Positions 48,309 to 62,753 are shown, numbered from the stretch's first letter. The stretch is DNA of 64,000 nucleotides from a bacterium (GCA_037446635.1 JBBIIG010000001.1:213638-277637), one strand, 5' to 3'. Made by a program: numbers and translations. Notes: generated from the sequence alone by a model not told the origin.

Positions 48309-49373
48309 TTACTCCATCGAGGAACCCCGCAACTTTTCACTCTCCTCCTTCACAAACTCAACCATGGCCTTTGCGTTTTCCACCGGCGTCTGCGGCAGAA
48401 TGCCGTGGCCTAAATTGAAAACGTGGCCGGCACCATCGCCGGCCTTTTCTAAAATTTTGATGACTTCCGCGCGCAGCCGATCCTTCGGCGCAAACAATGC
48501 GCACGGATCTAAATTGCCCTGCAACGCGACTCTATCTCCAACTTGTTTGCGAACTAATGCAAGATCGGCGGTCCAGGAAAGTCCGAGGGCATCGGCGCCG
48601 ATTTTTGACAGCGGTTCGAGGGAGTAACGCGCATCGCGGGCAAAAACGATGATCGGCTCGCCACTGCGTTTGATGCTCTGCACGACTTGCTTCAAATACG
48701 GCAGCGAGAATTCCCGAAAATCATCGGGGGATAACTGGCCGGCCCAGCTGTCGAAAATCTGCACCACTTGCGCACCGGCTTCAATCTGCGCGCTGAGAAA
48801 ATCGGCCACAGCGACGGTTAGTTTCTCCAACAAATTTTTTAGGAGCCCGGGGGACGTGTACATCAGACTTTTGATTTTCGTGAAATCCTTCGAACCCTGT
48901 CCTTCGACCATATACGCCGCCAGCGTCCACGGCGCGCCGGCAAATCCGATGAGCGGCACGCGGCCGTTCAATTCTTTGCGAACCAGTTTCAGTGCCTGCA
49001 AAACAAAATCGAGACCTTCTTCCGGAATCACCGGCCGCAGCTTCTCGAAATCCTTGGGATCGCGCAGTGGCGCCTCGAACACCGGCCCCCGACCTTCGTG
49101 AAAATTCAGCGCCATGCCCATGGCTTCGGGAATGACGAGAATATCGGAAAAAATAATGGCCGCGTCAACCCCGATAATGTCCACTGGCTGCAGCGTTACC
49201 TCGGCGGCCAACTCCGGCGAGTGGCACATCGTCATGAAATCGGCCTTCGCGCGGACTTTCTGATATTCGGGCAAATAGCGGCCAGCTTGTCGCATGATCC
49301 ACACTGGCGTTCTCGGCGTCGGCTCGCGGCGGCAGGCTTTGATGAGCAGATCGTTTTTTAGTTTTTCAGTCAT
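48309..49373 (-). CDS. hemE: Uroporphyrinogen decarboxylase
   Basis: WIMRQAGRYLPEY, FSDIL, QIFDSW, QGNLDP, FNLGHG. Confidence 0.97.
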   Translation of the reverse strand: MTEKLKNDLLIKACRREPTPRTPVWIMRQAGRYLPEYQKVRAKADFMTMCHSPELAAEVTLQPVDIIGVDAAIIFSDILVIPEAMGMALNFHEGRGPVFEAPLRDPKDFEKLRPVIPEEGLDFVLQALKLVRKELNGRVPLIGFAGAPWTLAAYMVEGQGSKDFTKIKSLMYTSPGLLKNLLEKLTVAVADFLSAQIEAGAQVVQIFDSWAGQLSPDDFREFSLPYLKQVVQSIKRSGEPIIVFARDARYSLEPLSKIGADALGLSWTADLALVRKQVGDRVALQGNLDPCALFAPKDRLRAEVIKILEKAGDGAGHVFNLGHGILPQTPVENAKAMVEFVKEESEKLRGSSME

Positions 49374-49394
49374 TAGCAAAATTCCACTATTCTT

Positions 49395-49423
49395 GTAGGG
49401 AACGCATTCTATGCGTTCCCTAC
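49395..49423. repeat. GTAG-type REP palindrome overlapping hemD stop
   Basis: GTAGGGAACGCAT-tct-ATGCGTTCCCTAC. Confidence 0.75.
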
Positions 49424-50209
49424 TTCGGTATAAAAATCCGCGATGGCTTGGGCTAAATCTGGAATCGTGGATTTCGCCGGCACAATGTTTGCCAGCAATT
49501 CCAGCTCGCGCAACGCCTCTGCGGTGACGCCGCCAATTGCGGCGATCTTGCATCCGTGTTTCAGCCAGCGTTCTATTTTATCGCGCCCAATTAACGCAAC
49601 AAAATTTCGAACCGTCGCGGGACTGGTGAAGGTCAGCACATCAACTGAATGGCCATTGAGCGCTTTGGCAATTTCGGAAGAATTGCATTGCGCTGGCGGT
49701 TGATTTTTGTAAACTGCCACGGTATCGACCTGCGCGCCTAATTTGACTAACTCATTCACCAAAACCTCGCGACTTTCTTGAGCTTTCGGAATGAGGATTC
49801 GCTTCCCGCGCAGGTCGATCTCGGAGAAAGCTTTCGCCAACCCTTCGGCGCGAAATTCCTCGGGCACGAGATCGACGCGCACGCCGATTTCTTGCAACGC
49901 CATTTTCGTTCTTTCTCCTACGGCTGCGATTTTCGCCGCATTCAATTCGGAAATGGAGCGGCCTCTTCCCTCGAGTCGTTTCACAAAAAATCTCACCCCG
50001 TTAACGGAAGTAAAAATCAGCCAGTCATAGCGAGATAGATTTTCGAGAGCAGCGTCGCAGGCTTCCCATGAATCCGGTGGCACGATTTCAATCGTTGGAA
50101 TCGCAATCACCTCCGCGCCCAAATGTTTGAGCGGCGCGATGAGCTCATGCGCTTGATCTTGCGCGCGGGTGACGATGATTCGTTTTCCGGCGAGTGGCTT
50201 CTTCATCAC
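49409..50209 (-). CDS. hemD: Uroporphyrinogen-III synthase
   Basis: IIVTRA, FTSVNGV, AVGERT, VYKN, FTSPATV, AIGGVT. Confidence 0.93.
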   Translation of the reverse strand: MMKKPLAGKRIIVTRAQDQAHELIAPLKHLGAEVIAIPTIEIVPPDSWEACDAALENLSRYDWLIFTSVNGVRFFVKRLEGRGRSISELNAAKIAAVGERTKMALQEIGVRVDLVPEEFRAEGLAKAFSEIDLRGKRILIPKAQESREVLVNELVKLGAQVDTVAVYKNQPPAQCNSSEIAKALNGHSVDVLTFTSPATVRNFVALIGRDKIERWLKHGCKIAAIGGVTAEALRELELLANIVPAKSTIPDLAQAIADFYTEVGNA

Positions 50210-51114
50210 GAGTTCTCTTTCAAAACCAACGCCACTTTTTCGGCAACGGCCCTGGCCTCTTCAATTCTGCCAGCAACTTTTTCTTTTCTAAAATGACTTC
50301 CATCTTCTTCCGCTACAAATGCGTGGAAGATCATTTGCCCGCCGTTGATTTCACAAAAGCCGCCCATCGGTGTCTGGCAGCCGCCGCCCATCGCTGCGAG
50401 AAATGTGCGCTCGGCGATGACGGCAATTTCCGTGAGTTGATGATTCAGCGGTTTCAGCAGAGATTCGGTCTCGTGATCGTTTTCACGAATCTCGACGCCC
50501 ACGGCGCCCTGTCCTACAGCCGGGATCATCAAATCATAGTTCAAATATTGCTGGATGCGGTGCTGCCAACCCATCCGGGTTAAACCAGCTGCCGCGAGAA
50601 CGATACCGTCGTATTCTTCACTCTCCGCTTTTCGCAGCCGCGTGTCGATGTTACCGCGAATAGCGATGATTTCAAAGTCCGGCCGCAGCGTCAGCAACTG
50701 AGATTTTCGTCGCAAACTGCTGGTGCCGATTTTCGCGCCCGCCGGCATTTCCTCCAAATTCTTTTTAAAGTGCGTCACAAAAACGTCGCGCGGGTCAACT
50801 CGCTCGGTGATGGCGCCAATCTTCAATCCCGCCGGAAATTCAGTTGGTAGGTCTTTCATACTGTGCACCGCAATATCGATTTCATTTTCGAGCAGTTTGT
50901 CCTCGATCTCCTTCACGAAAACGCCTTTGCCCGGCATCCGGCTCAATGCGGTGTCCAAAACCTTGTCGCCGGTGGTGACGATCTCGATGATCTGAATTTG
51001 CAGTTGCGGCTGGAGTTGCAAAAGCTGGTCGATGACGGCGTGGGTCTGAGCTTTGGCTAACGCACTGCGCCGGGTACCGACGCGCAGTGGTCTATTTAAA
51101 TCGTAGGAATACAA
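50206..51114 (-). CDS. hemC: Hydroxymethylbilane synthase
   Basis: GTRRSALA, GKGVFVKEIE, VHSMKD, GTSSLRR, GGGCQTP. Confidence 0.96.
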   Translation of the reverse strand: MYSYDLNRPLRVGTRRSALAKAQTHAVIDQLLQLQPQLQIQIIEIVTTGDKVLDTALSRMPGKGVFVKEIEDKLLENEIDIAVHSMKDLPTEFPAGLKIGAITERVDPRDVFVTHFKKNLEEMPAGAKIGTSSLRRKSQLLTLRPDFEIIAIRGNIDTRLRKAESEEYDGIVLAAAGLTRMGWQHRIQQYLNYDLMIPAVGQGAVGVEIRENDHETESLLKPLNHQLTEIAVIAERTFLAAMGGGCQTPMGGFCEINGGQMIFHAFVAEEDGSHFRKEKVAGRIEEARAVAEKVALVLKENS

Positions 51115-52422
51115 TTACGCTCTGTTTTCTCCGCGAAGCGAATCGGATGACAACCCAAAGAGATTGCGAACGGCAGCGGTGTAGCTCTGGCCGTTGCCCT
51201 CGGCAGCTTCCGCTCGCAAACGCACGATGGGCTGATGCAGCATTTTGTTGACGATGCGCCGAGCCAACTCCTGCACTACCTGCACGTCGTGCTCTGGCAG
51301 CTCGGCTTGCAGACGGCGCAGCGCGCGTTCCACTTCCTGCGACTGAATATCTTCCGCGAAACTGCGCAGGTCGGTGATCACAGGCGTGACTTCCAGCGAC
51401 TGCCGCCACGCCGCAAAATTGGCCATTTCTTGTTCAATGATATTTTTCGCTTTGGTGATTTCCGCGCAGCGTTTGCCGCCGTTGCTGTCCAACTCAGATT
51501 TGAGATGATCGATATTATAAAGCTTAACTGAATTCAGAGCGCTGACTTCCGGATCGACGTCCCGGGGGACGGCCATGTCAACGATCAGCAGCGGGCGGAA
51601 CCCACGGTTGGCCAGCGTTTGCTGCACCATCCCTTTGCTCAACACAACATGCGGCGCGCCAGTCGAGCTGATAACCACGTCCGCATTTTTGAGGCAATCT
51701 TCGAGTTTATCAAATCCAAAGAATTTGACATTGAGTCTGGCAGCAACGTCTTTCACTTTTTCTTCCGTGCGATTGATCACTGTAACATCGCTTGCCCCAC
51801 CTTTCAACAGCGCCTTCACCGCCAACAAACTCATTTTGCCCATGCCGATTACCAAAATGTTGAGACCGGTCAGCCCGCCGAACGATTTCTTCACCAACGC
51901 CACCGCGGCATGGCTGACCGAAGCCGAGTGCTCGCTGAGGGCGGTTTCGGTGCGCACGCGCTTGCCGACGGTCAACGCATTGCGGAACAGCGCCGAAAGC
52001 AGCGGCCCAACGGTTTTGAATTTTTGCGCTGCCTCAAACGCCTCTTTAATTTGACCCTGAATTTGCGCTTCTCCTAAAATCATCGATTTCAAGCCACTGG
52101 CAACCGAGAAAAGATGCTGCTCCACCTCAGCGCCTTCAAGAACGTAGAGATAGGGCTCAAAATCTTTGCGGGGCGTTTTTTTAAAATTGGAAACAAATTC
52201 CTTTATTTGTTGGATACCCGCCTGCGCGTTTTTTACCGCCGCATAAATTTCGACGCGATTGCAGGTGGAGAGAATTACGGCTTCTTCAATTTGCGAGTAC
52301 GAATTTTCATGCTTGAAGAGTTTGACCAAAGCCTCGGCTAAAATGGAGGGGTGAAAGGCGAGTTTTTCACGAAGTTCTACTGGGGCCGTTTCATGGTTAA
52401 GTCCTATCAAAACATAGTGCAT
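51115..52422 (-). CDS. hemA: Glutamyl-tRNA reductase
   Basis: GLNHETAPVELRE, catalytic STCNRVE, GEAQI, IGMGKM, DMAVPRD, dimerisation domain (NKMLHQP). Confidence 0.97.
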   Translation of the reverse strand: MHYVLIGLNHETAPVELREKLAFHPSILAEALVKLFKHENSYSQIEEAVILSTCNRVEIYAAVKNAQAGIQQIKEFVSNFKKTPRKDFEPYLYVLEGAEVEQHLFSVASGLKSMILGEAQIQGQIKEAFEAAQKFKTVGPLLSALFRNALTVGKRVRTETALSEHSASVSHAAVALVKKSFGGLTGLNILVIGMGKMSLLAVKALLKGGASDVTVINRTEEKVKDVAARLNVKFFGFDKLEDCLKNADVVISSTGAPHVVLSKGMVQQTLANRGFRPLLIVDMAVPRDVDPEVSALNSVKLYNIDHLKSELDSNGGKRCAEITKAKNIIEQEMANFAAWRQSLEVTPVITDLRSFAEDIQSQEVERALRRLQAELPEHDVQVVQELARRIVNKMLHQPIVRLRAEAAEGNGQSYTAAVRNLFGLSSDSLRGENRA

Positions 52423-52445
52423 AAGATTGATTCGCCTCAATTACT

Positions 52446-52479: not shown

Positions 52480-52495
52480 ATCAAAAATAGTGCCA
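52480..52495 (-). promoter_or_regulatory. Sigma-54 (-24/-12) promoter of hem operon
   Basis: TGGCACTATTTTTGAT, with consensus spacing TGGCAC-N5-TTG(C>A)W. Confidence 0.65.
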
Positions 52496-52587: not shown

Positions 52588-52615
52588 CGGTTTTTTTCCA
52601 ATATGAAAAAAACCG
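52588..52615. promoter_or_regulatory. Candidate activator-binding site (UAS)
   Basis: CGGTTTTTTTC-CAATAT-GAAAAAAACCG, about 95-120 bp upstream of the -24 box; core resembles 60257-60273. Confidence 0.55.
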
Positions 52616-52763: not shown

Positions 52764-52785
52764 TAAATTGAAGGAGAAAAAACAA

Positions 52786-54084
52786 ATGGCAAGATTTTTG
52801 TTGATTTTGGTAAGCATTTTTTTGGTTTTTGGTTTTCAAGCCGTCGTAGCGCAGCAATCGACCGAGCAGGACACCCTGCGTGAGTTGATGCGCCGCATTG
52901 ATATCTTAACGGAAGAAATAGAAAAATCCAAACTGGGCGAAGTGGCCGAGCCAAAATACGAAAGCCGCTTTGGAATGGGGCCGGCGGCGTCGCGAGTTTA
53001 TCAATTAACTAAAACCGGCGTTTCTATTTCAGGCTACGGGGAGGTGGTTTATAATAATTTTGCCCGCGAGCAGGATAACGGCGTTGCAGCCACTCGCCGG
53101 GACCAAATTGACTACCTGCGCCACATCACCTATTTTGGGTTTCGTTTCAATGATTGGCTGCTTTTCAATTCTGAAATCGAATTTGAACACGCTAAAACCG
53201 GCAGCGGTTCACCTGGAGAGGTTGCGATTGAGTTTGGTTACGTCGAGGCGAGGCTTCATTCCGCTGTCAACTTTCGCGCGGGAATGGTGCTGGTGCCAGT
53301 GGGAATTGTGAACGAATTTCATGAGCCTTCCACCTTTCACGGCGCGCTTCGCCCCGAAACCGAACAGCAGGTCATCCCCACCACCTGGCGAACCAATGGC
53401 TTCGGATTTGTTGGTGAAACCAAAACCGGGGTAGGCTATAAACTCTATCTGATCGAAAGCTTGAACGCCGCCAATTTTTCCTCCAGCGGCATTCGTAGCG
53501 GCCGGCAAAACGGCGCGCAGGCGATCGCGGAAGACCTGGCGATCGCCGGCAAGTTGAATTACACCGGCGTCACTGGTTTGGACATTGGCGGCTCGTTCTA
53601 CGTCGGCAACACCGCGCAAGCCCTGACGGACACTTCCGGCAATGAAATTGACGCCCGGCTGGCCTTGTTTTCACTCCATTTTATGTTTGCACGAAAAGGG
53701 CTGGAGTTGCGCGGCCTCTTCGCTCAATCCACCATTTCCGACGTCGAAGAATTGAATGTCGTGCGCGGGTTCACCGGCGCAAATTCCATCGGCGAAAGAC
53801 AATACGGTTACTACTTTACGCTGGCGTATGACCTGCTGCCGCTGCTGGCTAAAGGAACAACGCACTATCTTGCGCCGTTCGTGCAATATGAAAAACTCAA
53901 CACTCAGGCGGAAGTGCCCGCTGGCTTTGCCAAAAATCTCGCGCGCGAACGCAGCAACTTGACGCTGGGACTAACCTATAAACCGCATCCCAACGTGGCG
54001 TTCAAACTCGATTACATCAACCGCGACGACGAGGCCAACAGCGCGCTCGATCAATTTAATGTTGCAGTCAATTACCTGTTCTAA
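52786..54084 (+). CDS. Outer-membrane porin-like beta-barrel (porin O/P-like)
   Basis: Signal peptide, coiled coil, ISGYGE, FNSEIEFEH, NEFHEP, C-terminal YLF; AAGGAG RBS. Confidence 0.82.
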   Translation: MARFLLILVSIFLVFGFQAVVAQQSTEQDTLRELMRRIDILTEEIEKSKLGEVAEPKYESRFGMGPAASRVYQLTKTGVSISGYGEVVYNNFAREQDNGVAATRRDQIDYLRHITYFGFRFNDWLLFNSEIEFEHAKTGSGSPGEVAIEFGYVEARLHSAVNFRAGMVLVPVGIVNEFHEPSTFHGALRPETEQQVIPTTWRTNGFGFVGETKTGVGYKLYLIESLNAANFSSSGIRSGRQNGAQAIAEDLAIAGKLNYTGVTGLDIGGSFYVGNTAQALTDTSGNEIDARLALFSLHFMFARKGLELRGLFAQSTISDVEELNVVRGFTGANSIGERQYGYYFTLAYDLLPLLAKGTTHYLAPFVQYEKLNTQAEVPAGFAKNLARERSNLTLGLTYKPHPNVAFKLDYINRDDEANSALDQFNVAVNYLF

Positions 54085-54088
54085 CCAG

Positions 54089-54631
54089 ATGATCAACTTT
54101 TGGAATTTAGTTCTATTGACTTTGGTTGTATTCTCAACAAGCTTTGGCCAGGTTTTCAAAAACCAGGAAGAGGTTTTGAAGGAGGCCTTTCCAAAAAATT
54201 GCACGGTGGATAGAAAGGTCGCTTTTCTAACCCCGGAGCAGATCAATAAAATTGAAAAACTGGCCAAAGCAAAATTAGAATCCAAATTGATAACCTATTA
54301 TGTTGGCAGTCTGGAGGACAGCACGATCGGATACGCCTTCTTTGAAACCAACGTGGTTCGCACCAAGCCAGAGACCTTTGTGGTGACTCTCAACCCGGAT
54401 GGCTCCATCAAATTCGTTGATATTCTCGCGTTTTATGAGCCGCTGGACTACCTCCCCACCCCACGTTGGCTGAAACTGTTCAACGGGAAAATTCTAAGCG
54501 ATAACCTCTGGCCCAAACGCGAAATTCACAACATCACCGGGGCGACGCTTTCGGTGCAAGCGATCACGCTGGGGACGCGAAAAATCCTTGCCATTTATCA
54601 GGTCGCCATTCAACCGGAGAAAACCCATTGA
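54089..54631 (+). CDS. Periplasmic FMN-binding protein
   Basis: Signal peptide, FYEP.DY, ITGATLS flavinylation motif. Confidence 0.85.
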   Translation: MINFWNLVLLTLVVFSTSFGQVFKNQEEVLKEAFPKNCTVDRKVAFLTPEQINKIEKLAKAKLESKLITYYVGSLEDSTIGYAFFETNVVRTKPETFVVTLNPDGSIKFVDILAFYEPLDYLPTPRWLKLFNGKILSDNLWPKREIHNITGATLSVQAITLGTRKILAIYQVAIQPEKTH

Positions 54632-55161
54632 AGTACATGCAAAACGGCGGCTACCAGAGCTCGCATCTGATGCGGCTGACGCTGCTACTAACGTTACTAT
54701 TTTTGACCGGATTCTGGGTCACCAACTTCGCGCTCTATTTTGCAAAGATGAGTCTGTCGCCGCTTTCGGTCAAAAATTATTACCTCGGCTCGGAAGAAAA
54801 TTACACCATGCCGCGCACCTACCAATCGATGCTGGAAGTCACGCACTCGCATCTGCCGATGATGGCGTTGGTGGTGCTGCTGGTTACGCATCTGCTCATC
54901 TTCGTGCCCTACGCACCGCGAACTAAAGTTCTGCTGATTGTTGGCGGATTCGCACTCGCGCTGCTCAATGAATCCGCCGGCTGGCTGGTGCGGTTTGTTC
55001 ATCCGGCGTTCGCCTGGTTGAAGGTGATGTCGTTCGCTTTATTTCAAATCGTGCTGGGATTTCTCATTTTTGCATTGGCGTTTTTTCTGATTAGCGGACG
55101 CGCCGTGAAGTTTAATTCCCCAAAATCACCACCGCCGCGCGGACGTTCCAAAACGCCATGA
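54628..55161 (+). CDS. Hypothetical membrane protein (about 4 TM, His-containing)
   Basis: EVTHSHL...LVTHLL; translationally coupled to the FMN-binding gene. Confidence 0.8.
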   Translation: MKYMQNGGYQSSHLMRLTLLLTLLFLTGFWVTNFALYFAKMSLSPLSVKNYYLGSEENYTMPRTYQSMLEVTHSHLPMMALVVLLVTHLLIFVPYAPRTKVLLIVGGFALALLNESAGWLVRFVHPAFAWLKVMSFALFQIVLGFLIFALAFFLISGRAVKFNSPKSPPPRGRSKTP

Positions 55162-55211
55162 GATTTAATTTCTAACCCGCTCTATTTCAAATAGCAACCG
55201 GGCTTTCTTGG

Positions 55212-55359
55212 CTAAGGTGATTAAATATGATGGATTACTGGATTAATTCGGTTGGCCTTTCATTGATCCATTAATCCAACGCTCCATTACTCCAAATTGT
55301 AACAACTTAGATTTCATTGTCATAAACTTGTTGGACTTCAAGATTTGTCAATATTCAGG
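55212..55359. repeat. Dispersed ~150-bp intergenic element, copy 2
   Basis: Aligns with 2520-2677. Confidence 0.75.
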
Positions 55360-55369
55360 CTAAAAGCAC

Positions 55370-57373
55370 ATGAGACAAAAAATCGTTTTTGCGTTCATCC
55401 TCTCGCCGCTGCTGTTTGCGGTCGTCTTCCTACTGCTGCCAGCCGACAACGCCGCTAATCGAGCCTCGGATCCCGCCGGCAACGGCGTTTCCAATTCAGC
55501 AGCCGTCTCCGCGGACAGGCTAATCTTTCTCTTACAATATATCAGCATCGACTACGGCGGCGCGGTGGCAAACCAGCGCGTCATCAATGAATTCGAATAC
55601 AGCGAAATGCTGGACTTCGCAGCCACCGCGGACGAATGGTACTCGCAACTCCGTGGGAAAAACAGCGATCCTTTCACGCAGCAAAAACTTCAGCAGCTAA
55701 AAAGTTTAGTCGAAAGCAAAGCCAACTGGTCTGAAATCAAAGACAGCGCCGGCGAGCTGATTCATCAATTGTCGCAAGAATTGAACGTCATCCCCTACCC
55801 AACGAAAACTCCCAATTTGAAAGTGGGGCAAAATCTTTATCGCCAGGTCTGCGCCGACTGCCACGGCAGCAGCGGCGATGGCCGCGGCCCCGCGGCGGCG
55901 TGGCTCAATCCGCCGCCGAGCAATTTCCAAAACAATGAACGAATGAACTTGGCCACGCCCCACCAATTTTTCAACGCCATCACCTTCGGCGTCGCCGGCA
56001 CCGCCATGCCTTCCCATCAGCAGGCGCTCAGCGACCAACAACGGTGGGACATCGCCTTTTATTTGATGACGTTGCGGCAGGGATTCAATCCGCGGACACC
56101 GGCGGGCGACGTCAAGCTTTCGGTGAACGAACTTGCCGGCGCTTCCAACACCGAGCTCGCGGCAAAACTTAAATTCGACGCGAAGAATATCGACGAATCG
56201 AATCTTTTTTCCACGGTGGATTACTTTCGCCAAAATCCGCCGCAGGTCAGCGTTGAAGAGCAGCTTACCTTCACCCGCCAAAAACTGCACGAAAGTTTGA
56301 CGGCTTACAAAAACGCCGATTTCACCGGCGCGCTGAACGCCATCACCGACGCCTACCTTGCCGGCGTGGAGCCATTGGAAGCGCAGCTCCGAAGGGCGGA
56401 TGTAACGGCCCTCGAAATGGAATTCAGCAAATTACGCAACGCCATTCTCACGCAGCGGCCGTTCTTTGAGGTCGAGGTGCACTACGACAACCTCGACCGG
56501 CGGCTCAACGAAATCCGCACCGCCGGACCATCGGTCGCGCAGCGCGGCTTCGTTCTGCTGCAGTCGTTGACCATCATTTTAAGAGAAGGCATCGAAGCGA
56601 TTCTACTCATCGCGTTGATGTTCACCTACCTGGTTTCCGCCGGCTACAGCAATCTGAAAAAATACGTCGTCAGCGGCGCGCTCGCGGGGCTGGCTGCCGG
56701 CGGGCTAGCCTGGTTTACCGCGCAGTTTTTGCTGACGATCTCCATCATCCAGCAGGAGGCGCTGGAAGGAATCACCTCTTTGCTGGCGGCGGCGGTGCTG
56801 TTTTTCGTCAGCTTTTGGATCATTCACAAAGTCGATATTCGCAAGTGGAAAACTTTCATCCGCACGAAAGCAGAAAAAGCGCTGGGGACCGGCAGCGGCC
56901 TGGCGTTGTCCGCGGTAGCGTTTCTGGCGGTATTTCGGGAAGCCTTTGAAACGGTTTTGTTCTATCAGGTTTTGTGGCTGCGCAGCGATGCCGAACGAAC
57001 GAGCGTCGTGCTCGGCTTCGTGCTGGGCGCGGCGGCGCTAGCCTTGGTTCTCTACCTCGTTTTCAAATTAGGTGCGAGGCTGCCGCTGAAACCGTTTTTC
57101 ATTAGCACCGGGATTCTGTTAGGCATGCTGGCGTTCATGTTTGCCGGCTACGGCGTGCGCGAGTTGCAGAACATCGGCGTGTTGAAAGAGACCCTGCTGC
57201 CGTGGGATCTCCGCTGGCCGGTTTTAGAAATTCATCCCACCGTGGAAGGCCTCGCGCTACAAATGGCAATGCTGATTTCGTTTATCCTGGGGTGGTTTTC
57301 AGTGTTAGCGGAAAAATTGAAAAAAGCGGAAAAGCGGATTCGTTTGCGGCCGGTGGCGGTCAAAACGGATTAA
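55370..57373 (+). CDS. Cytochrome c / FTR1 iron permease fusion (PbrT-like)
   Basis: CADCH heme motif, GTAMP axial Met, REGIE and REAFE FTR1 motifs. Confidence 0.92.
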   Translation: MRQKIVFAFILSPLLFAVVFLLLPADNAANRASDPAGNGVSNSAAVSADRLIFLLQYISIDYGGAVANQRVINEFEYSEMLDFAATADEWYSQLRGKNSDPFTQQKLQQLKSLVESKANWSEIKDSAGELIHQLSQELNVIPYPTKTPNLKVGQNLYRQVCADCHGSSGDGRGPAAAWLNPPPSNFQNNERMNLATPHQFFNAITFGVAGTAMPSHQQALSDQQRWDIAFYLMTLRQGFNPRTPAGDVKLSVNELAGASNTELAAKLKFDAKNIDESNLFSTVDYFRQNPPQVSVEEQLTFTRQKLHESLTAYKNADFTGALNAITDAYLAGVEPLEAQLRRADVTALEMEFSKLRNAILTQRPFFEVEVHYDNLDRRLNEIRTAGPSVAQRGFVLLQSLTIILREGIEAILLIALMFTYLVSAGYSNLKKYVVSGALAGLAAGGLAWFTAQFLLTISIIQQEALEGITSLLAAAVLFFVSFWIIHKVDIRKWKTFIRTKAEKALGTGSGLALSAVAFLAVFREAFETVLFYQVLWLRSDAERTSVVLGFVLGAAALALVLYLVFKLGARLPLKPFFISTGILLGMLAFMFAGYGVRELQNIGVLKETLLPWDLRWPVLEIHPTVEGLALQMAMLISFILGWFSVLAEKLKKAEKRIRLRPVAVKTD

Positions 57374-57428: not shown

Positions 57429-59402
57429 TCAATTGGAATGCCGCTGCTGCGAACTAGTGATGTGGTACTCCTTCATTTTCCGCCACAACGTGGTGCGGCC
57501 AATTCCCAAAATTTTGGCCACCAGATCATAGTTCCAATCGAATTCCTGCAGCGTCGCGGCGATGTGATTTTTTTCCAAATTCTTCAAACTCAAATCGGCG
57601 GCGTCGGCGCGGTGGTTGGTCGCGGTAGGTTTGAACATATTTTGGGGGAAATCTGCCTTGCTTAAATATTTTCCCAAACACAACGCCGCCGCCCGCTCGA
57701 TGGCGTTCTCCAACTGGCGCACGTTGCCGGGCCAATCGTATTCGCACAACAGCTTCTGCGCTTCCTCGTCGATGCCGTAAATGGTTTTGTGAATTTTTTC
57801 CGCGTATTTTTTGGTGAAAAATTCCGCCAGCGGCAGAATATCTTCTCGATGATCTCGCAGCGGCGGAATGGTGATTTGAATCACATTCAAACGATAATAC
57901 AAATCCTGCCGGAACAATCCCTGCGCGATCATCTCTTCCAAATCGCGGTTGGTCGCGGTAATCAATCGCACATCCACCTTCAGCGTTTGATGACTTCCCA
58001 CGGGCTTGATTTCTCCCTCTTGCAAAAAGCGCAAAAGTTTAACCTGCATCGCCAGAGAGGTTTCGCCAATTTCGTCCAAAAAAATGGTGCCGTGGTTGGC
58101 CGCTTCGATTAAACCTTTTTTGTTGTGAGTGGCGCCCGTGAACGCGCCGCGCACGTGCCCAAACAACTCGCTCTCCAGCAAACTTTCCGGCAGAGCGCCG
58201 CAGTTGACGACAATGAAAGGATTTTGCGCGCGGCTGCTGTGCTCGTGAATGGCGCGGGCAATCAATTCTTTGCCGGTGCCGCTCTCGCCATCGATGAGCA
58301 CGGAAATATCGGTCTGCGCGATGCGCGCCACCAGCTCCAGAATATTCTGCATCGCCGGACTTTTGCCAATGATGTTCCCGAAACGATATTCTTCTCGTGA
58401 ATTGACCCAGGCGATAAAATCATCCACTTCGCGATCGATGAGCTGTTCGATCACCGCGGCCACCTTCTGATGTTCTTTCAAATTGCTGGCGACGATTTTT
58501 TCCAGATCGCGCTTGTTGTAATAATAAATGTTGTACACGTCCGAAAGGTTGAGCTTTTCAAAAACATCCGGCTGCGAATCGTCCAGATAAGAGACAAACA
58601 ACAGCGGCCGGTTATTGCGCCGGCTCATCATTCTTGAGATCTGCTGCTGTTCAAAAATCGGCGCGAAATCTTTGCTGTACATCAGCAGCAAGTCGATAGA
58701 CGGCAGAACCTGACTGAGCTGCTCGGTCTTAATTTTCGCGCCGCCAAAACGCTCAATCAACGACGCGCTCTTGTTATGAAAATCCACAAGGAAAAGTTCG
58801 CCAATATTCTGCTCTTTTAGTTTTTTAACGAGCGGCTCAAAGGAATAACCGTCCGCGGCGATCAGCGCTTTGTGGTCTTTGAGATCGCCGAACATTTTCT
58901 GGGCGATCTCCACCAGCACTGATTCCGCGGTGATGGCGTTTTTTTGAACATTAAGCTGGATTCGGATTTTCTCCGCCAACCACAAACCGCGCTGAAAAAG
59001 TTTATTTAACTTCGGACCCACCAGGTTCAAACTGCGGGACTTTTCAAACGCCTTCCGAAAGTCTTCAAGCGAATGCGTCATCTCCCCCGCTGCATCCATG
59101 CCAATTGCCAGCCGGAAAAATTCACGCAGGGCATCCGGGCCATCGGCGCGGAAACGACGGCTTTGCAAAACCTCAGCCGGCGCTTCGTATTCTTTTTGCA
59201 GTTCCACATAAAATTTTGAAATCAAAATGTCCCGCTGCTCTGCCACCGCGAAGATTTGTATTCTCTCCCCAGCTTGATAGACAAACATCTCCTGCGCCGA
59301 AAGTTTTTTGCCGGCAAACTCGGCGAGAGTGGTCAAGTTGCGCGCCCAGCTCTCCCGCGCTTGTGACTCGGAATAATCAAAACCGAAGGTAAAAATTGGC
59401 AT
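57429..59402 (-). CDS. Sigma-54-dependent activator with N-terminal degenerate glutamyl-tRNA reductase domain
   Basis: [38 protein letters not shown], Fis HTH; N-terminal ~335 aa is collinear with HemA. Confidence 0.9.
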
Positions 59403-59408
59403 AGCCGC

Positions 59409-60236
59409 TTATTGAAAATTATGAAACTTTGAAAAAAACAAATTGACAATGATAAACGAAAACAACAACCAGTTGAACCCGATCACCGACACCACGGCCG
59501 CTCGCAAACCCTGCCAGCCGACGATTTTCCGCGTCACATAGTGCGCGAGGTAAATGGCCCACGAAATCACCACCGCCAGCAGTTTTGGGTCTAGCGCCCA
59601 GCGGCCCTCCCAGACCCTCGTCCCCATGTAGAACCCCAGAACGATGCCAAGGCTCACCACAATTAAGCCGATGTTCACGGCTTGATTGCTGAGCTTGTCC
59701 ACATATTCCAATGACGGCAGCCGCTGAAAAAAAATCCCCAACTTTCTCGTGCGCATTTCCCGCGCCAACAAAATGTACATGATGCTGGTGATGAACGAGA
59801 TACTGAACGCTGCGTAAGCGGAGATCATAATCGCCACGTGCACCTCAAACAACAGTATGGTGCTCAGCAACTCGGCAAGCGGTTTATCGAAGTCAATGAA
59901 AGCGCTGGAGATGCCGTGTAAGATGAGAATGATGGGAATGAAAAACACGCCCATCGTCATCACTTTGGCGCGAATTTCGATGATGAGATAGACCAGCACA
60001 AAAAACCAGGCGCAGGTGGTCAGCACCTGAAAGACGTCGCCCACTGGAATGTGCTGTAGTTTCAAACCGAGCAAGATCAAATAAATGGTATGACACCCGG
60101 CTGAGAGCGCCAGCCAAAATCGCAGCCGAGACTCGGTTGCCTGTTTTTTTATTCGGAAATAATAAAAATAATAGCCGAAGCTCACGCCGTACAAAACGAA
60201 CACCAGCCAACTGAGAGACCGCAGAATTTCGATCAC
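59409..60236 (-). CDS. HemX/CcsA-like cytochrome c assembly family membrane protein
   Basis: HIP, EVHV...AY, RLPSLE, WEGRWALDPK, GWQG.RAA, C-terminal FH; about 8 TM helices. Confidence 0.9.
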   Translation of the reverse strand: MIEILRSLSWLVFVLYGVSFGYYFYYFRIKKQATESRLRFWLALSAGCHTIYLILLGLKLQHIPVGDVFQVLTTCAWFFVLVYLIIEIRAKVMTMGVFFIPIILILHGISSAFIDFDKPLAELLSTILLFEVHVAIMISAYAAFSISFITSIMYILLAREMRTRKLGIFFQRLPSLEYVDKLSNQAVNIGLIVVSLGIVLGFYMGTRVWEGRWALDPKLLAVVISWAIYLAHYVTRKIVGWQGLRAAVVSVIGFNWLLFSFIIVNLFFSKFHNFQ

Positions 60237-60256: not shown

Positions 60257-60273
60257 ATTTTCATTTTGAAAAT
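60257..60273. promoter_or_regulatory. Palindrome at promoter of ccsA-activator operon
   Basis: ATTTTCA-TTT-TGAAAAT, overlapping the -10 of a minus-strand TTGCAT-17-TATTTT promoter. Confidence 0.55.
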
Positions 60274-60342
60274 AGGAAATCCTGCTCTGAAATGCAAGCA
60301 CGGAATAGGTAAGGATAATTCTCCCTTTCCGTATCTTGGTTA

Positions 60343-60426
60343 AAAGGGTAGGGGTAATTCATGAATTACCCCTACCCTTTCAGCACCCTTCAGTTAAAGG
60401 AAAAGGGTAATTTGTGAATTACCCTT
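60343..60426. repeat. GTAG-type REP palindrome plus degenerate second copy
   Basis: Perfect 38-bp palindrome at 60343-60380; AAGGGTAATTTGTGAATTACCCTT at 60403-60426. Confidence 0.85.
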
Positions 60427-60536: not shown

Positions 60537-62753
60537 GTGAAAATTTTCTCGAATCTCAAAGGCGATTTCATGGGGGGACTCACCACCGCCGTCATCACAC
60601 TGCCCTGGGCGATTGCATTCGGAATTGTGGCGTATGCGCCGCTGGGCGAACAGTACATTGCGCAAGGCGCGCTCGCCGGACTGTATAGCGTGATCGTTTC
60701 CGGACTGCTGGCCAGCGTCCTCGGCGGAACCACCGGACTCATCTCGCTGCCGACCGCACTGCAAGCGGTGATGACAACGTCAATTGTCACCACGATTCTC
60801 AAGAATCCGGAAATCGCCGCGCTCGGGAGCAATCAGGTCACGGTGGTTTTGGTGCTGACGGCCATGGCCATTGCGATGGCAGCGATATTTCAGTTGATCC
60901 TCGGCGCCAGCGGCGGCGGCAAGCTGGTGAAGTTCATCCCCTATCCGGTGATCGCCGGCTTTATGAACGGCATTGCCATCATCATTTTCATGGGACAATT
61001 GCGTCCGCTGTTTGGCGTGGCGAAAGATGCCTCGCTCATCGGCATTTTCACGGGGGCGGTTCCGTTCCGCTACGATACGCTGATCGTTGGCGCGGTCACC
61101 ATCGTCGCGATGCTTACCACGCGCAAATTGACCAAAGCCATTCCCGGCTCGCTGGTCGGTTTGCTGTGCGGCGTGGCGGCGTATTTTGTCATCGGCAAAT
61201 TTTTTAATCCGGCTCTCATGCAAGTCACCAACAACCCGCTGATCATCGGGCCCATTCCCAGCGCGTTTCCAACTCCGAAGCAAGTGGCAGCTTTCTTCAG
61301 CGTGGCGGATGTCATCTCGCCGCGGCTGATCGGCATGTTGGTTGTGCCCGCGCTCACCCTCGGCGTGCTGGCGTCCATCGATACTCTGTTGACCTCCGTA
61401 GTTACCGACATGTTCACTCGCACCAAACACAACAGCGTGAAGGAATTGTTCGCGCAGGGCGCGTCAAATCTTTCCGCGGCGGTGTTTGGTGGATTGCCCG
61501 TCGCCGGTTCCACCCTGCATGCGCTCGTTAACATCAACGCCGGCGGCCGCACCATGCTGGCCGGCATTTTTCACAGCCTGATTGTTTTGTTCATCGTGCT
61601 ATTTCTCGGCAGCCTCGTGCAGTGGATTCCCATGGCGGTGCTGGCGGGCATTCTGCTCATCACCGCCTTCACGATGGTGGAAGCGGAGAGCATCAACCTG
61701 TCGCTGAAAAAATCGGCGCTGGGGAATTTGCTGGTGCTGGTGGCGGTGGCCGCCATCACCGTCGCGGTGGATTTGATGATCGCCGTCGTGGTGGGTCTGG
61801 TCATCACCGCGTTTTTGTTTATCAAAGAGCAGATCAACAAAACCATCATTCGCCGGACGTTCACGGCCAATTTGATTCATTCGAAAAAAATCCGCAATCA
61901 CGACGCCATGAAAATTCTCGAAGAAAAAGGCGAGTCGATCAAAGTGTATGAGCTGAGCGGATCGATTTTCTTCGGCACCTGCGACAAGCTGTTTGCGGAG
62001 ATGGAAAAAGATTTCGACCGCTTCTGCATTATTCTCGATTTCAAACGGGTGCACACCATCGACCTCACCGGTGCGCAACTGCTGAAACAGATCATCGATC
62101 GCGTTAAAGAGAAGGGCAACCACGTGCTGCTCAGCTACCTCGATTTGCCCGGCAATGTCGACAAGCAGCGGCTGCGGCGTTTCATGGCGGACGCCGGCGT
62201 CATCAAAGCCGTGGGCGAGGATTTCATTTTTGCGGACACCGACCACGCGCAGGAATGGGCCGAAGACGCGCTCATCCAAAAAGAGCTGGCGGCGCAGGTT
62301 GAAAAAGCCCAGCTCGATCTTTCCAATTTCAGCGTCTTCGCGGAATTCGACGCGGAGCAATTGGAAACGATCCGCCAGCATTTGCATCCGCTGCATTTCA
62401 ACAAATCCGACATCGTGTTCAAAGAGGGCGACCCCGGCGACAAGATTTATTTCATCCTCTCCGGGGGAGTGAGCGTGCTCGCCAGCGTCTCGGACAACGG
62501 CCGCGCCCGCCGCCTCACCACCTTTGGCGAGGGCGTCTTTTTCGGCGACATGGCCATCCTCGAGGGCAAGCCCCGTTCCGCCACCGTCCGCGCCGACAGC
62601 GACACCGAGCTGCTCTATATGTCCGTGGACGACTTCCAGCACCTCGTGAAAAACGAACCGCTGATTGCCTCGAAGATGCTGATGGGCATGGCCAAAGAAC
62701 TCTCGTACCGCCTGCGGCTGACGAGTATTGAGGTGAGGACGCTGGAGGAGTAG
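60537..62753 (+). CDS. SulP/SLC26 transporter with STAS and cyclic-nucleotide-binding domains
   Basis: PWAIAFG, IPYPVIAGF, STAS (IFFGT, IDLTG), FGDMAILEGKPRSATV; GAGGAGG RBS. Confidence 0.92.
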   Translation: MKIFSNLKGDFMGGLTTAVITLPWAIAFGIVAYAPLGEQYIAQGALAGLYSVIVSGLLASVLGGTTGLISLPTALQAVMTTSIVTTILKNPEIAALGSNQVTVVLVLTAMAIAMAAIFQLILGASGGGKLVKFIPYPVIAGFMNGIAIIIFMGQLRPLFGVAKDASLIGIFTGAVPFRYDTLIVGAVTIVAMLTTRKLTKAIPGSLVGLLCGVAAYFVIGKFFNPALMQVTNNPLIIGPIPSAFPTPKQVAAFFSVADVISPRLIGMLVVPALTLGVLASIDTLLTSVVTDMFTRTKHNSVKELFAQGASNLSAAVFGGLPVAGSTLHALVNINAGGRTMLAGIFHSLIVLFIVLFLGSLVQWIPMAVLAGILLITAFTMVEAESINLSLKKSALGNLLVLVAVAAITVAVDLMIAVVVGLVITAFLFIKEQINKTIIRRTFTANLIHSKKIRNHDAMKILEEKGESIKVYELSGSIFFGTCDKLFAEMEKDFDRFCIILDFKRVHTIDLTGAQLLKQIIDRVKEKGNHVLLSYLDLPGNVDKQRLRRFMADAGVIKAVGEDFIFADTDHAQEWAEDALIQKELAAQVEKAQLDLSNFSVFAEFDAEQLETIRQHLHPLHFNKSDIVFKEGDPGDKIYFILSGGVSVLASVSDNGRARRLTTFGEGVFFGDMAILEGKPRSATVRADSDTELLYMSVDDFQHLVKNEPLIASKMLMGMAKELSYRLRLTSIEVRTLEE

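Follow-up and report, generated by a model that had tools for sequence, protein, structure and literature searches.

Why should a bacterium that already has a hemA gene carry, 5 kb from the real hemA operon, a second sequence resembling glutamyl-tRNA reductase (GluTR) in one frame with the motor and DNA-binding parts of a sigma-54 activator, and what would such a protein sense and control? The question is raised by a single open reading frame in the window, by which we mean the whole 64,000-nucleotide stretch of bacterial DNA analysed here. A sequence-only reading had assigned positions 58390-59402, which correspond to residues 1-337 of the 657-residue fusion protein, to a catalytically dead GluTR serving an intact sigma-54 activator as its N-terminal input domain, and the Pfam matches, the hemA profile TIGR01035, the fold and the pattern of motif losses all bear this out. 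The parts of the gene are as follows.

57429..59402, minus strand: fusion gene, a 657-residue open reading frame of pseudo-GluTR, sigma-54 AAA+ activator and Fis-type helix-turn-helix (HTH)
58383..59402, minus strand: GluTR-like part, residues 1-340, with catalytic-domain and NADPH-domain fold
58401..58514, minus strand: long helix, residues 297-334, from DSSP on the model, equivalent to the start of the GluTR spinal helix
57873..58373, minus strand: sigma-54 interaction AAA+ domain, residues 344-510 (Pfam Sigma54_activat, PF00158, 251.5 bits)
57465..57587, minus strand: DNA-binding Fis-type HTH, residues 606-646 (Pfam HTH_8, 53.5 bits)

By sequence criteria, residues 1-340 are homologous to GluTR (HemA) and catalytically dead. 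Pfam places GlutR_N at residues 24-147 (34.0 bits against a cut-off of 27) and Shikimate_DH, the NADPH domain of GluTR, at residues 165-302 (32.6 bits against 24.3), and residues 32-337 are collinear with positions 35-337 of the 416 in the NCBIfam hemA profile TIGR01035 (E 4.5e-35). BLASTP against the real HemA of the window (51115..52440, minus strand) gives 23% identity over 317 columns (E 3e-14) and reproduces all four motif pairs that had been quoted for an N-terminus of about 335 residues collinear with HemA. Sequence matches of this part in the PDB are solely the GluTRs 1gpj (E 4.6e-16) and 4n7r (E 9.6e-11), and the predicted fold agrees: the AlphaFold2 model of residues 1-345 (pLDDT 85.8) has 1gpj as its best Foldseek match in the PDB (E 4.7e-18, TMq 0.64), followed by Arabidopsis GluTR chains, with the folds ranking after the GluTRs at E 1e-5 or worse.

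The BLASTP alignment also contains the two substitutions noticed earlier, active-site STCNR to QAGER and the NADPH motif IGMGKM to AADGYS, and the loss is family-wide. None of the 13 fusion proteins in the family alignment has a Cys at the STCNR position, in a region that is variable in 13/13; GxGxxG is likewise gone, and GEPQILGQ is lost in every fusion member aligned. The Cys and GxGxxG are also missing from 13/13 fusion representatives or fragments in a 50%-identity library, and six ordinary GluTRs in that same alignment have all motifs intact. Common to the fusion and GluTR are KxFGxL, RxxxP and the R of KRVRTET. A quick tree splits the fusion branch from 26 true GluTRs (SH-aLRT 95), with long terminal branches. 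We give virtually no credence to the idea that the fusion is a trigger enzyme, that is, a working GluTR joined to a regulator: the homology does run across 300 residues and some sources do label relatives 'glutamyl-tRNA reductase', but nucleophile, GEPQILGQ and GxGxxG have disappeared from every member, the TIGR01035 score (121.4 bits) is far under the equivalog cut-off of 209.55, and a complete hemA lies 5 kb off. In databases the fusion proteins go under 'glutamyl-tRNA reductase' or under 'sigma 54-interacting transcriptional regulator', and a genome annotated with the former would be credited in error with a second HemA.

The AAA+/GAFTGA/HTH module, again as judged from motifs and profiles, is complete. 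The Sigma54_activat match spans profile positions 1-167 of 168, the Walker motif GESGTGKE and Walker B DEIGE are invariant in the family alignment, the GAFTGA loop that contacts sigma-54 (G419-A424) is invariant in 13/13 members, AAA_lid_14 occupies residues 516-599, and the HTH_8 domain holds a 13-residue stretch invariant across the family. All NCBIfam equivalog models fall under their cut-offs for the fusion protein, the best being PrdR with 367 bits against 795. Pfam finds no GlutR_dimer (PF00745) in it, and the AAA+ module stands in that place, the HemA dimerisation domain having been replaced by an AAA+/GAFTGA/Fis-HTH module as first suggested. Helix 297-334, which follows the NADPH domain, aligns in BLASTP to HemA 'IIEQEMANFAAW', with the HemA alignment stopping in its first turns, and in the model it leads straight into the AAA+ domain; this helix may be a coupling or dimerising linker between the dead enzyme domain and the AAA+ domain.

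The junction near 58400 is genuine. It is bridged by a 3128-nt contig from a public run, about 94% alike, that spans 58138-60094 unbroken, and the architecture is present in many independent genome assemblies of the phylum and in 15 protein clusters of a 5.8-billion-protein collection; being conserved in this way, the fusion is not an assembly artefact. At E<=1e-25 the N-terminal part matches 38 of 167 phylum genomes and 18 of the 20 other genomes of the window's own family. As a division into genomes with and without the fusion this threshold is too strict, and the 12/14 negative count that it yields is not a clean control; divergent copies, with frames of 646-745 residues, occur in six of ten rechecked genomes (G002, G007, G008, G011, G121 and G135). 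The negative set thus shrinks to three genomes of family f7, in two of which the hemA upstream region was read, and G067. In one genome (G065, 95% complete, 9% contamination) the fusion is present and HemA has no match at E<=1e-50.

A search of genome contigs with patterns from the AAA+/HTH part returned 80 loci, of which 77 are ordinary sigma-54 activators and only L003-L005 are full-length fusions. Public runs X1 and X2 contributed short, low-depth contigs only, the many apparent joints in the AAA+ region of public-run contigs come from sigma-54 activators of other organisms, and no RNA run is among the public runs listed as holding the stretch.

What the dead domain might sense is suggested by the gene beside it.

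59409..60236, minus strand: gene for a HemX-like membrane protein of 275 residues (Pfam Cytochrom_C_asm, PF01578, 94.5 bits)

This gene ends 6 nt from the fusion gene, with which it is probably co-transcribed, and it lies directly upstream and co-oriented in 24/24 fusion loci (20/20 and 4/4 more). The protein scores 116.5 bits with TIGR03144, under the cut-off of 187.6, and resembles CcsBA (7s9y) in both its model (TMq 0.73) and its profile match (E 5e-7). The model has eight long helices and two short ones, and a by-eye reading under the positive-inside rule suggests that both ends may lie outside the cell. Three histidines, H133, H232 and H272, which we take to be P-His1, TM-His2 and P-His2, are invariant in 21/21 and align with His761, His858 and His897 of 7s9y_A; heme binding by the HemX-like protein is suggested by these aligned histidines. 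The WWD motif (W-x3-W-x-LDPK) is degenerate, reading W209-x3-W213-x2-D216-P-K. In CcsBA two TM and two periplasmic His heme ligands flank the WWD domain, according to the available text of PMC6299221, in which the numbering H761/H858/H897 is not found. Two other Cytochrom_C_asm genes in the genome are able to serve cytochrome c maturation. Among relatives the HemX-like protein is 58-70% identical, against 35-48% for the fusion N-domain.

The N-domain and the HemX-like protein are predicted to form a complex, the ipSAE being 0.72 every time in three runs and 0.00 in the best of three controls, values that express model confidence rather than a measurement. That mark is reached by 116 of 157 solved complexes and by 2 of 215 mismatched pairs, counts that hold only roughly here because our own alignments were used. 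At least 90% of contacts are shared between runs, and the HemX-like partner has a pLDDT of 81. Conserved columns account for 9 of the 19 N-domain contact residues, compared with 38 of 345 overall (p 4e-5), and for 10 of 17 in the HemX-like protein, compared with 91 of 275 (p 0.02); the contacts sit on two conserved K/R-rich loops of the HemX-like protein, read as cytoplasmic, and the predicted interface coincides with the most conserved surface of the N-domain. The modelling thus points to the HemX-like protein as the likely input partner of the dead GluTR domain, and among the four inputs put forward initially (heme, Glu-tRNA, HemX or HemA) the constant neighbour and the complex prediction favour HemX.

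A different reading, in which the dead domain senses a soluble ligand (heme, NADPH, glutamyl-tRNA or glutamate-1-semialdehyde) and the HemX-like neighbour is inherited synteny with no physical role, seems to us unlikely. It draws on two complete genomes without the fusion (G084 and G085) in which 36 nt separate the end of the HemX-like gene from the real hemA, so that adjacency alone could be inherited, on reports of heme binding by several bacterial GluTRs (S. aureus GtrR, in the available text of PMC10991733), and on a fusion subgroup (P0026, P0030, P0032 and P0033) with a conserved Cys (GGC) two positions past the former active site. Yet the substrate and cofactor motifs are the ones that have not been conserved, the N-domain surface that is most conserved is instead the predicted HemX-like interface, and the HemX-like protein is better conserved than the N-domain and never apart from it at the 24 loci.

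The pair of genes is preceded by a palindrome that also occurs, in one-mismatch form, upstream of hemA.

60258..60272, no strand: exact palindrome TTTTCA-N3-TGAAAA, proposed autoregulatory operator
60292-60297 and 60269-60274: sigma-70-like promoter TTGCAT-N17-TATTTT, its -10 box overlapped by the palindrome

The palindrome lies 22 nt upstream of the HemX-like start and, of the 52 intergenic rows in a whole-genome scan, it alone matches exactly. Upstream of the HemX-like gene it is exact in 15 of 20 related loci and has one mismatch in 1 more, and it is missing in four (L118, L130, L131 and L132). A sigma-54-like site is present upstream of the HemX-like gene in 0/20 loci. We note that the protein binding the palindrome could be any of the 31 other Sigma54_activat matches of the genome, or an unrelated repressor.

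The candidate target of the activator is the heme operon itself.

48309..52422, minus strand: proposed target operon hemA-hemC-hemD-hemE (Pfam on window ORFs, as for the single genes below)
51115-52422, minus strand: real hemA, likely ATG at 52422 (PF05201, 184.6 bits)
50206-51114, minus strand: hemC
49409-50209, minus strand: hemD
48309-49553, minus strand: hemE
52480..52495, minus strand: sigma-54-type -24/-12 element TGGCACTATTTTTGAT, found about 58 nt before the likely ATG of hemA
52594..52609, no strand: proposed enhancer (UAS) TTTTCATATTGGAAAA, a one-mismatch palindrome copy

More heme genes follow downstream of hemE on the same strand, to 39340, and the genome carries rpoN (contig C27, 213.7 bits) and 32 Sigma54_activat matches. 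A sigma-54 consensus scan of the 64-kb window alone gave 1 match with at most one mismatch (2.76 expected) and 22 with at most two (38.9 expected); these counts are not above chance, and such a scan is informative only together with comparison between genomes. The hemA upstream regions of 14 of 15 family genomes share a conserved YGGYAY-N5-TTG motif positioned at -57 to -87, and in 14 of 15 the TTTTCA-N3-TGAAAA palindrome is found 114-219 nt upstream of that site, often paired as two copies 20-21 nt apart. The candidate UAS at 52594 starts 114 nt upstream of the -24/-12 element. This fixed arrangement of site and palindrome has been kept though the flanking sequence diverged. Among more distant genomes of other families that have the fusion, the sigma-54-like site is present upstream of hemA in 6/6 and the palindrome in 5/6, the upstream region of the sixth measuring just 152 nt. 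In G002 the module is followed immediately by two exact palindromes and a TGGCATAAAAATTGA site, after which come an ORF and hemA-hemC-hemL. The sole family genome with a hemA that lacks both the sigma-54 site and the palindrome is G067 (94% complete), which is also without the fusion and the HemX-like gene. On this comparative evidence, the hemA operon is the likely output of the fusion activator.

Composites of a palindrome and a sigma-54 site number six in this genome against an estimate of about three by chance, so that the argument for the target depends on conservation across related, non-independent genomes. One candidate composite, on contig C36 in front of a Ser/Thr kinase-PEGA gene, has a one-mismatch palindrome 84 nt upstream of its sigma-54-like site and is probably due to chance in view of the same two numbers.

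The hemA motif might also be taken for a Bacteroidota-type sigma-70 promoter, whose -7 box has the consensus TAnnTTTG, in which case the fusion would be a mere repressor or would have lost its activator function. We consider this very improbable. The sequence TATTTTTG within the hemA element of the window and its closest relatives does fit TAnnTTTG, the window encodes a 287-residue short-type sigma-70, and the -12 position lacks the canonical C, being TTGA or TTGT rather than TTGC. Across 22 sites, however, GG..A and TTG are invariant at sigma-54 spacing and the spacer is free (GGGGT, GCTTG, AACAA), so that TAnnTTTG is not what has been conserved. Nor is the -12 variant peculiar to hemA: 61 of the 107 genome-wide TGGCAY-N5-TTGN sites are intergenic, intergenic sequence being 10% of the genome, and among those 61 a co-oriented gene lies no more than 300 nt away for 49, and the -12 element reads TTGA or TTGT in 27. 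Loss of activator function sits poorly with a AAA+ domain, GAFTGA loop and Walker motifs that are invariant in the family, and an enhancer-like dyad at such a distance upstream is typical of sigma-54 control.

It is also quite unlikely, in our judgement, that the activator controls other genes, such as the porin/FMN-binding/FTR1-cytochrome c iron-uptake cluster or the SulP-cNMP transporter, and that the palindrome is the site of another regulator governing the heme and hemX-like operons. Binding of the palindrome by the fusion protein is a prediction, the porin-to-FTR1 cluster lies between both loci in the window and, in L115 and L122, beside the module, 8/20 loci have the SulP-cNMP gene as divergent neighbour, and an enhancer in the hemA-porin intergenic region could act either way. 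But the porin, FTR1 and SulP genes of the window have no sigma-54-like site in front of them, the sigma-54 site and palindrome track hemA in genomes that have those clusters elsewhere, and G067 has lost the module and both hemA promoter elements together. Enhancer-binding proteins with Fis-type HTH dimers, NtrC among them, bind 17-bp dyads of 7-3-7 geometry, and the palindrome matches this geometry.

We favor a model in which the fusion is a HemX-controlled pseudo-GluTR activator of heme synthesis genes, a reading that we regard as reasonably probable. The ancestral arrangement would have been a hemX-hemA pair, as still present in relatives without the fusion; the hemA copy beside hemX would have shed the dimerisation domain together with the residues for catalysis and NADPH binding, and would have gained the AAA+/GAFTGA/HTH module at the start of the spinal helix. 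Comparative genomics suggests that the HTH dimer binds the 7-3-7 palindrome TTTTTCA-N3-TGAAAAA, and the one or two copies 114-219 nt upstream of the sigma-54 promoter would serve the AAA+ ring in activating hemA-hemC-hemD-hemE, and binding to the copy over the -10 of the sigma-70-like promoter of the HemX-like gene and the regulator would repress the regulator's own synthesis. The dead GluTR domain would dock on the two conserved cytoplasmic loops of the HemX-like protein, and HemX would read heme status, keeping the activator inactive at the membrane or leaving it free to assemble at the hemA enhancer. Because the HemX-like protein keeps the heme-handling fold and the aligned histidines, heme status would decide the state of the activator, and by analogy with Firmicute HemX, heme sufficiency would switch it off. 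The signal is probably heme; its identity and the sign of the response are guesses by analogy.

A broader proposal, which we put forward tentatively and think somewhat doubtful, is that HemX senses heme as a membrane receptor and makes direct contact with the GluTR fold through its two cytoplasmic loops, GIFFxRLPSL and GWQG, and that the pair became a membrane-to-promoter pathway. If true, the pathway in this phylum would run from HemX to the dead GluTR domain, the AAA+ motor and the sigma-54 hemA promoter, and the interface formed by KxFG, RxxxP and the strand-helix at about residues 287-306 would be the HemX contact on active GluTR in Bacillus, Staphylococcus and others. Regulation of GluTR by HemX in Bacillus subtilis was reportedly described by Schroder in 1994. 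In S. aureus and B. subtilis HemX acts after transcription to reduce GluTR abundance, by a mechanism left open, and hemX co-occurs and colocalises with gtrR across phyla, as given in the available text of PMC5801465 (Choby 2018) and PMC10991733; the available text of PMC5801465 further describes eight TM helices with both termini outside, states that direct HemX-GluTR contact was never shown, and has the question of how HemX controls GluTR open since 1994. The fusion family yields a concrete, mutable predicted interface, and the HemX/GluTR-fold pair would have been kept together here under selection for something besides catalysis.

Enhancer-binding proteins are known for their swapped sensor domains, among which the dead GluTR would be a new one. 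The fusion resembles activators of the NtrC, NifA, NorR and XylR class in its AAA+ domain with GAFTGA, lid and C-terminal Fis-type HTH, in a host with rpoN, in the candidate dyad more than 100 nt upstream of a -24/-12 promoter, and in an N-terminal regulatory domain joined through a helix; unlike them, it has as its sensor a degenerate form of GluTR, the very enzyme whose gene it appears to control. To our knowledge, a degenerate GluTR is not among the sensor types of this class, which include REC, GAF, PAS, V4R, ACT, PRD and CARF. The literature searched holds no description of a sigma-54 activator whose sensor derives from an inactive copy of GluTR, the enzyme that opens the pathway, and a 2025 survey of sigma-54 regulons does not mention heme; at this locus heme biosynthesis would come under sigma-54 control.

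The remaining comparisons concern the enzyme and the membrane partner. With GluTR (1gpj, 4n7r) the fusion has in common the fold of the catalytic and NADPH domains as well as the beginning of the spinal helix, but not the Cys nucleophile, GxGxxG or the dimerisation domain. The HemX-like protein has the fold and three aligned histidines of CcsA/CcsBA (7s9y), although its WWD motif is degenerate and TIGR03144 is under the cut-off. Like HemX of B. subtilis and S. aureus, it is a CcsA-family membrane protein with conserved membrane histidines, encoded beside a gene for a GluTR fold, and feedback control of heme synthesis, the known role of HemX, is proposed for it likewise. In contrast to the Firmicute case, the GluTR fold here is a dead domain on a transcription motor and would act on transcription of the hem operon, so that the system would exemplify a post-translational control pair rewired into a transcriptional one. 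Membrane sequestration or partner switching controls transcription factors in Mlc-PtsG, PspF-PspA, NifA-NifL and DhaR-DhaK/L, and we propose that here, too, an activator is checked by a partner that does not bind DNA and reads metabolic state. In this instance, unlike those systems, the partner is predicted to be a heme-handling membrane protein and the docking domain a pseudoenzyme.

The fusion gene of this window encodes a protein in which, as sequence and structural models together establish, a glutamyl-tRNA reductase (GluTR, HemA) domain with a dead active site precedes an intact sigma-54 activator motor and helix-turn-helix, and its pairing with a gene for a HemX-like membrane protein is conserved on the same evidence. 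The relevant features are:

52440 down to 39340, minus strand: nearly complete heme-synthesis cluster on one strand, in the order hemA, hemC, hemD, hemE, hemN, hemH, protoporphyrinogen oxidase (amine-oxidase-type), hemB and a final hemL-type gene (class-III aminotransferase by Pfam)
41578-42435, minus strand: 285-residue open frame with no Pfam match, between hemB and the hemL-type gene
51115-52440, minus strand: the real hemA, complete (GlutR_N 184.6 bits)
52495-52480: sigma-54-like site TGGCACTATTTTTGAT, some 58 nt upstream of the probable hemA ATG
52768-57373, plus strand: four genes between hemA and the regulator, for a porin-like protein (no Pfam match), an FMN-binding protein, a small membrane protein and an FTR1 iron permease-cytochrome c fusion
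57429-59402, minus strand: fusion gene, an open frame of 657 residues
59409-60236, minus strand: HemX-like gene (275 residues, Cytochrom_C_asm 94.5 bits), ending 6 nt before the fusion gene
60258-60272: exact palindrome TTTTCA-N3-TGAAAA, 22 nt before the HemX-like start
60537-62753, plus strand: 738-residue SulP permease with STAS and cyclic-nucleotide-binding domains

Pfam recognizes five domains in the fusion protein. GlutR_N (34.0 bits, cut-off 27) covers residues 24-147 and Shikimate_DH, which is the NADPH domain in GluTR, covers 165-302 (32.6 bits, cut-off 24.3); Sigma54_activat (344-510, 251.5 bits), AAA_lid_14 and HTH_8 follow. The only two GlutR_N matches in the whole genome are this gene and the complete hemA. 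Residues 32-337 also align with the NCBIfam hemA model TIGR01035 (positions 35-337 of its 416, E 4.5e-35), with a score (121.4 bits) far under the equivalog cut-off of 209.55. The sequence-only reading had argued for a dead GluTR from motif pairs shared with the real HemA, including STCNR/QAGER and IGMGKM/AADGYS, and all of these are reproduced by BLASTP of the two proteins (23% identity over 317 columns, E 3e-14); Pfam and the alignment likewise agree with its claim that the HemA dimerisation domain is gone. The GluTR fold that it proposed is recovered in an AlphaFold2 model of residues 1-345 built from an alignment of 21 orthologues (pLDDT 85.8, pTM 0.66), for which the best Foldseek match is GluTR 1gpj (E 4.7e-18, TMq 0.64), the other top matches are six Arabidopsis GluTR chains, and generic Rossmann dehydrogenases rank next at E 1e-5 or worse. 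The only PDB sequence relatives of the N-part are the GluTR entries 1gpj and 4n7r. A single long helix (residues 297-334), corresponding to the first part of the GluTR spinal helix, closes the model and leads into the AAA+ domain. The fusion junction is real, since a public-run contig about 94% alike spans 58138-60094 in one piece, which disposes of the concern that nothing spans it.

Neither a cysteine at the nucleophile column nor GxGxxG is present in any of 13 full-length fusion proteins, and both are again absent from all 13 members of an alignment of fusion representatives and fragments, in which GEPQILGQ is lost as well; true GluTRs aligned alongside (three with the full-length set, six with the representatives) retain every motif. 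The STCNR region varies across the fusion family (QAGER, RNGTR, KSDQG, CEDST and others), and what the family conserves is one long segment, plus RxNxP and YNxYxY..DL in the NADPH-domain remnant. We also note a subgroup (P0026, P0030, P0032 and P0033) with a conserved cysteine in G-G-C, two positions past the former active-site column, that could be a heme or metal ligand.

Searched against a collection of 5.8 billion proteins, residues 1-340 match 18, of which 15 (the window's own included) carry Sigma54_activat and three are ordinary GluTRs; the fusion proteins are named at source either 'glutamyl-tRNA reductase' or 'sigma 54-interacting transcriptional regulator'. At E<=1e-25 the N-part is matched in 38 of 167 genomes of the phylum (a tally that takes in G162, flagged unpublished), and the window's family has it in 18 of 20 further genomes; the open frames measure 650-750 residues. 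This threshold is too strict, because six of ten rechecked genomes (G002, G007, G008, G011, G121 and G135) hold divergent copies with frames of 646-745 residues. Among the best 150 matches of a profile search of 1.84 billion representatives, the sigma-54 module is Pfam-confirmed in P0021, P0026, P0030, P0032, P0053, P0089, P0164 and the fragment P0022; for five of these eight, Pfam gives no GlutR_N match at E<=1e-5. Full-length matches among named genome records number three, labelled by their depositors as candidate division KSB1, uncultured Calditrichaceae and uncultured Cytophagia. A quick, unrooted maximum-likelihood tree separates 28 fusion N-domains, on long branches, from 26 true GluTRs by one branch (SH-aLRT 95), and is compatible with a single origin. 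The representative library also holds other GluTR fusions in which the enzyme domains are all intact (P0057, GluTR plus hemerythrin; P0147, siroheme-synthase N-domain plus GluTR; P0148, GluTR plus NirDL-type siroheme decarboxylase).

A HemX-like homologue lies directly upstream of the fusion gene, and co-oriented with it, at 20 of 20 loci (20 genomes) and in all four more distant genomes; within-family identity is 58-70% for the HemX-like protein against 35-48% for the N-domain. The closest structure to its model (pLDDT 80.3) is CcsBA 7s9y (TMq 0.73), with CcmF next, and three invariant histidines, H133, H232 and H272, align with His761, His858 and His897 of 7s9y_A, which we take to be CcsBA heme ligands. 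According to excerpts from one study, CcsBA ligates heme through two transmembrane and two periplasmic histidines (PMC6299221). The HemX-like gene is one of three Cytochrom_C_asm genes in the genome, and its product scores under the cut-off of the NCBIfam CcsB model. We use the name HemX-like because in G084 and G085, both complete genomes from a family that lacks the fusion, the homologue ends 36 nt ahead of the real hemA, a hemX-gtrR arrangement that, in excerpts from Choby et al. (PMC5801465), co-occurs and colocalises across phyla. We infer that the fusion arose from a hemA copy adjoining hemX.

Complex prediction for the N-domain and the HemX-like protein, each with a 21-row alignment, gives a score of 0.72 in all three runs, while the best control of three scores 0.00. 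Among solved complexes 116 of 157 attain this mark, and among mismatched pairs 2 of 215, counts that hold only roughly here because our own alignments were used. The runs share at least 90% of contacts, with a partner pLDDT of 81, and since no solved HemX-GluTR complex is known to us, the predictor is unlikely to have passed by reproducing one; the prediction supports binding rather than demonstrating it. Predicted contacts involve fusion residues 166, 168-172, 263-266, 287, 290-291, 293, 295, 299, 302-303 and 306 (motifs AxKxFG, RxNxP and YNxYxY..D) and HemX-like residues 157, 161-162, 164, 166, 170, 174-178 and 240-245 (RLPSL and GWQG), and conserved columns are enriched among them on both sides (9/19 vs 38/345, p 4e-5, for the N-domain; 10/17 vs 91/275, p 0.02, for the HemX-like protein). 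The HemX-like segments are the K/R-rich loops that follow membrane helices five and seven, and in a topology read by eye both termini lie outside the cell, so these loops would face the cytoplasm. KxFG and RxxxP of the predicted interface are common to true GluTRs, and the contact may therefore be ancestral.

In the window and at 8 of 20 related loci, the HemX-like gene has the SulP fusion gene as its divergent neighbour. Between the two genes in the window are two G+C-rich perfect inverted repeats (60343-60380, of 38 nt, and 60405-60424), built around GGTAATTCA..TGAATTACC. The porin-to-FTR1 cluster, which also adjoins the HemX-like and fusion genes at loci L115 and L122, may supply iron for heme, and no sigma-54-like site precedes it in the window. 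Further out, the products of 33104-34741 (minus strand) and 62940-63998 (plus strand) end in a Peptidase_S74 (endosialidase chaperone) domain, and nearby open frames carry a T9SS sorting domain or an FlgD-Ig domain.

The TGGCACTATTTTTGAT site is the sole intergenic sigma-54-like site in the window, and taken in the window alone it is not significant (1 match vs 2.76 expected). YGGYAY-N5-TTG is found at -57 to -87 of hemA, amid unalignable DNA, in 14 of the 15 family genomes for which sequence upstream of hemA is available, and a sigma-54-like site lies upstream of hemA in all six other-family genomes with the fusion. The window's genome has rpoN and 32 Sigma54_activat matches, and 61 of its 107 TGGCAY-N5-TTGN sites are intergenic, intergenic DNA being 10% of the genome; for 49 of the 61, a co-oriented gene lies no more than 300 nt away. 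The -12 elements of the 61 read TTGC (30), TTGT (16), TTGA (11) and TTGG (4), and a non-TTGC element is normal in this genome, the canonical C often being absent.

The same 14 family genomes have the palindrome, accepted with at most one mismatch or with a spacer of 4 nt, at 114-219 nt upstream of the hemA site, and six of the 14 have a pair of copies separated by 20-21 nt. It is also upstream of hemA in five of the six other-family genomes, the sixth having only 152 nt of upstream sequence. In G002 the HemX-like and fusion genes are followed immediately by two exact palindromes and then, in order, by TGGCATAAAAATTGA, one open frame (by eye, for a siroheme-synthase-type NAD-binding protein) and hemA-hemC-hemL. 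The copy at 60258-60272, the sole exact one among 52 intergenic rows for the whole genome, overlaps the -10 box of a TTGCAT-N17-TATTTT promoter. An exact palindrome precedes the HemX-like gene at 15 of 20 loci (14 at 30-113 nt, one at 233 nt) and a one-mismatch version at one more; it is absent from the other four (L118, L130, L131 and L132), and none of the 20 has a sigma-54-like site there. The one family genome whose hemA is without both elements, G067 (94% complete), is also without the fusion and the HemX-like gene, its genus-mate G068 has all of them, and G067 is a natural control for the link between regulator and target. In family f7 the fusion is absent from the three genomes tested and both elements from upstream of hemA in the two read. 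G065 (95% complete, 9% contamination) counts against strict co-occurrence, having the fusion and no HemA match at E<=1e-50; the HemA tallies take in G158, flagged unpublished.

Elsewhere in the window's genome, a TGGCATAGCGGTTGCT site (G000:C36:14857-14956, L182) precedes the gene of a PEGA-domain Ser/Thr protein kinase, which is divergent from a GAF-SpoIIE phosphatase gene, and 84 nt upstream of that site is a one-mismatch palindrome, ATTTCATAATGAAAA. The combination is probably due to chance, and we note it because phosphorylation of S. aureus GluTR by a Ser/Thr kinase is reported in excerpts from a review (PMC10991733).

In the simplest reading, the fusion regulator would bind the TTTTCA-N3-TGAAAA dyad, repress its own sigma-70-type promoter through the palindrome there, and activate the sigma-54 hemA promoter from the palindrome as an enhancer; comparative genomics points to the palindrome as the binding site, to hemA as the target and to repression of its own promoter. 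The N-domain, as the complex model suggests, would dock on the cytoplasmic loops of the HemX-like protein. That heme is the signal, with heme sufficiency switching the activator off, is our guess by analogy. HemX reduces GluTR abundance after transcription by a route given as unknown in excerpts from the primary study and a review (PMC5801465; PMC10991733), and the fusion family provides a concrete hypothesis for the contact between HemX and GluTR.

A literature search with subscription journals mostly outside its reach found no published GluTR-derived sensor on a sigma-54 activator and no published sigma-54 control of hemA of this kind. Relative to known systems, the fusion protein has every sequence feature tested for enhancer-binding proteins and belongs to that class, whereas it stands outside the GluTR enzyme family because it fails the tests of four defining GluTR features. 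Its partner fits HemX in fold and synteny, but fails the tests for a cytochrome c synthetase.
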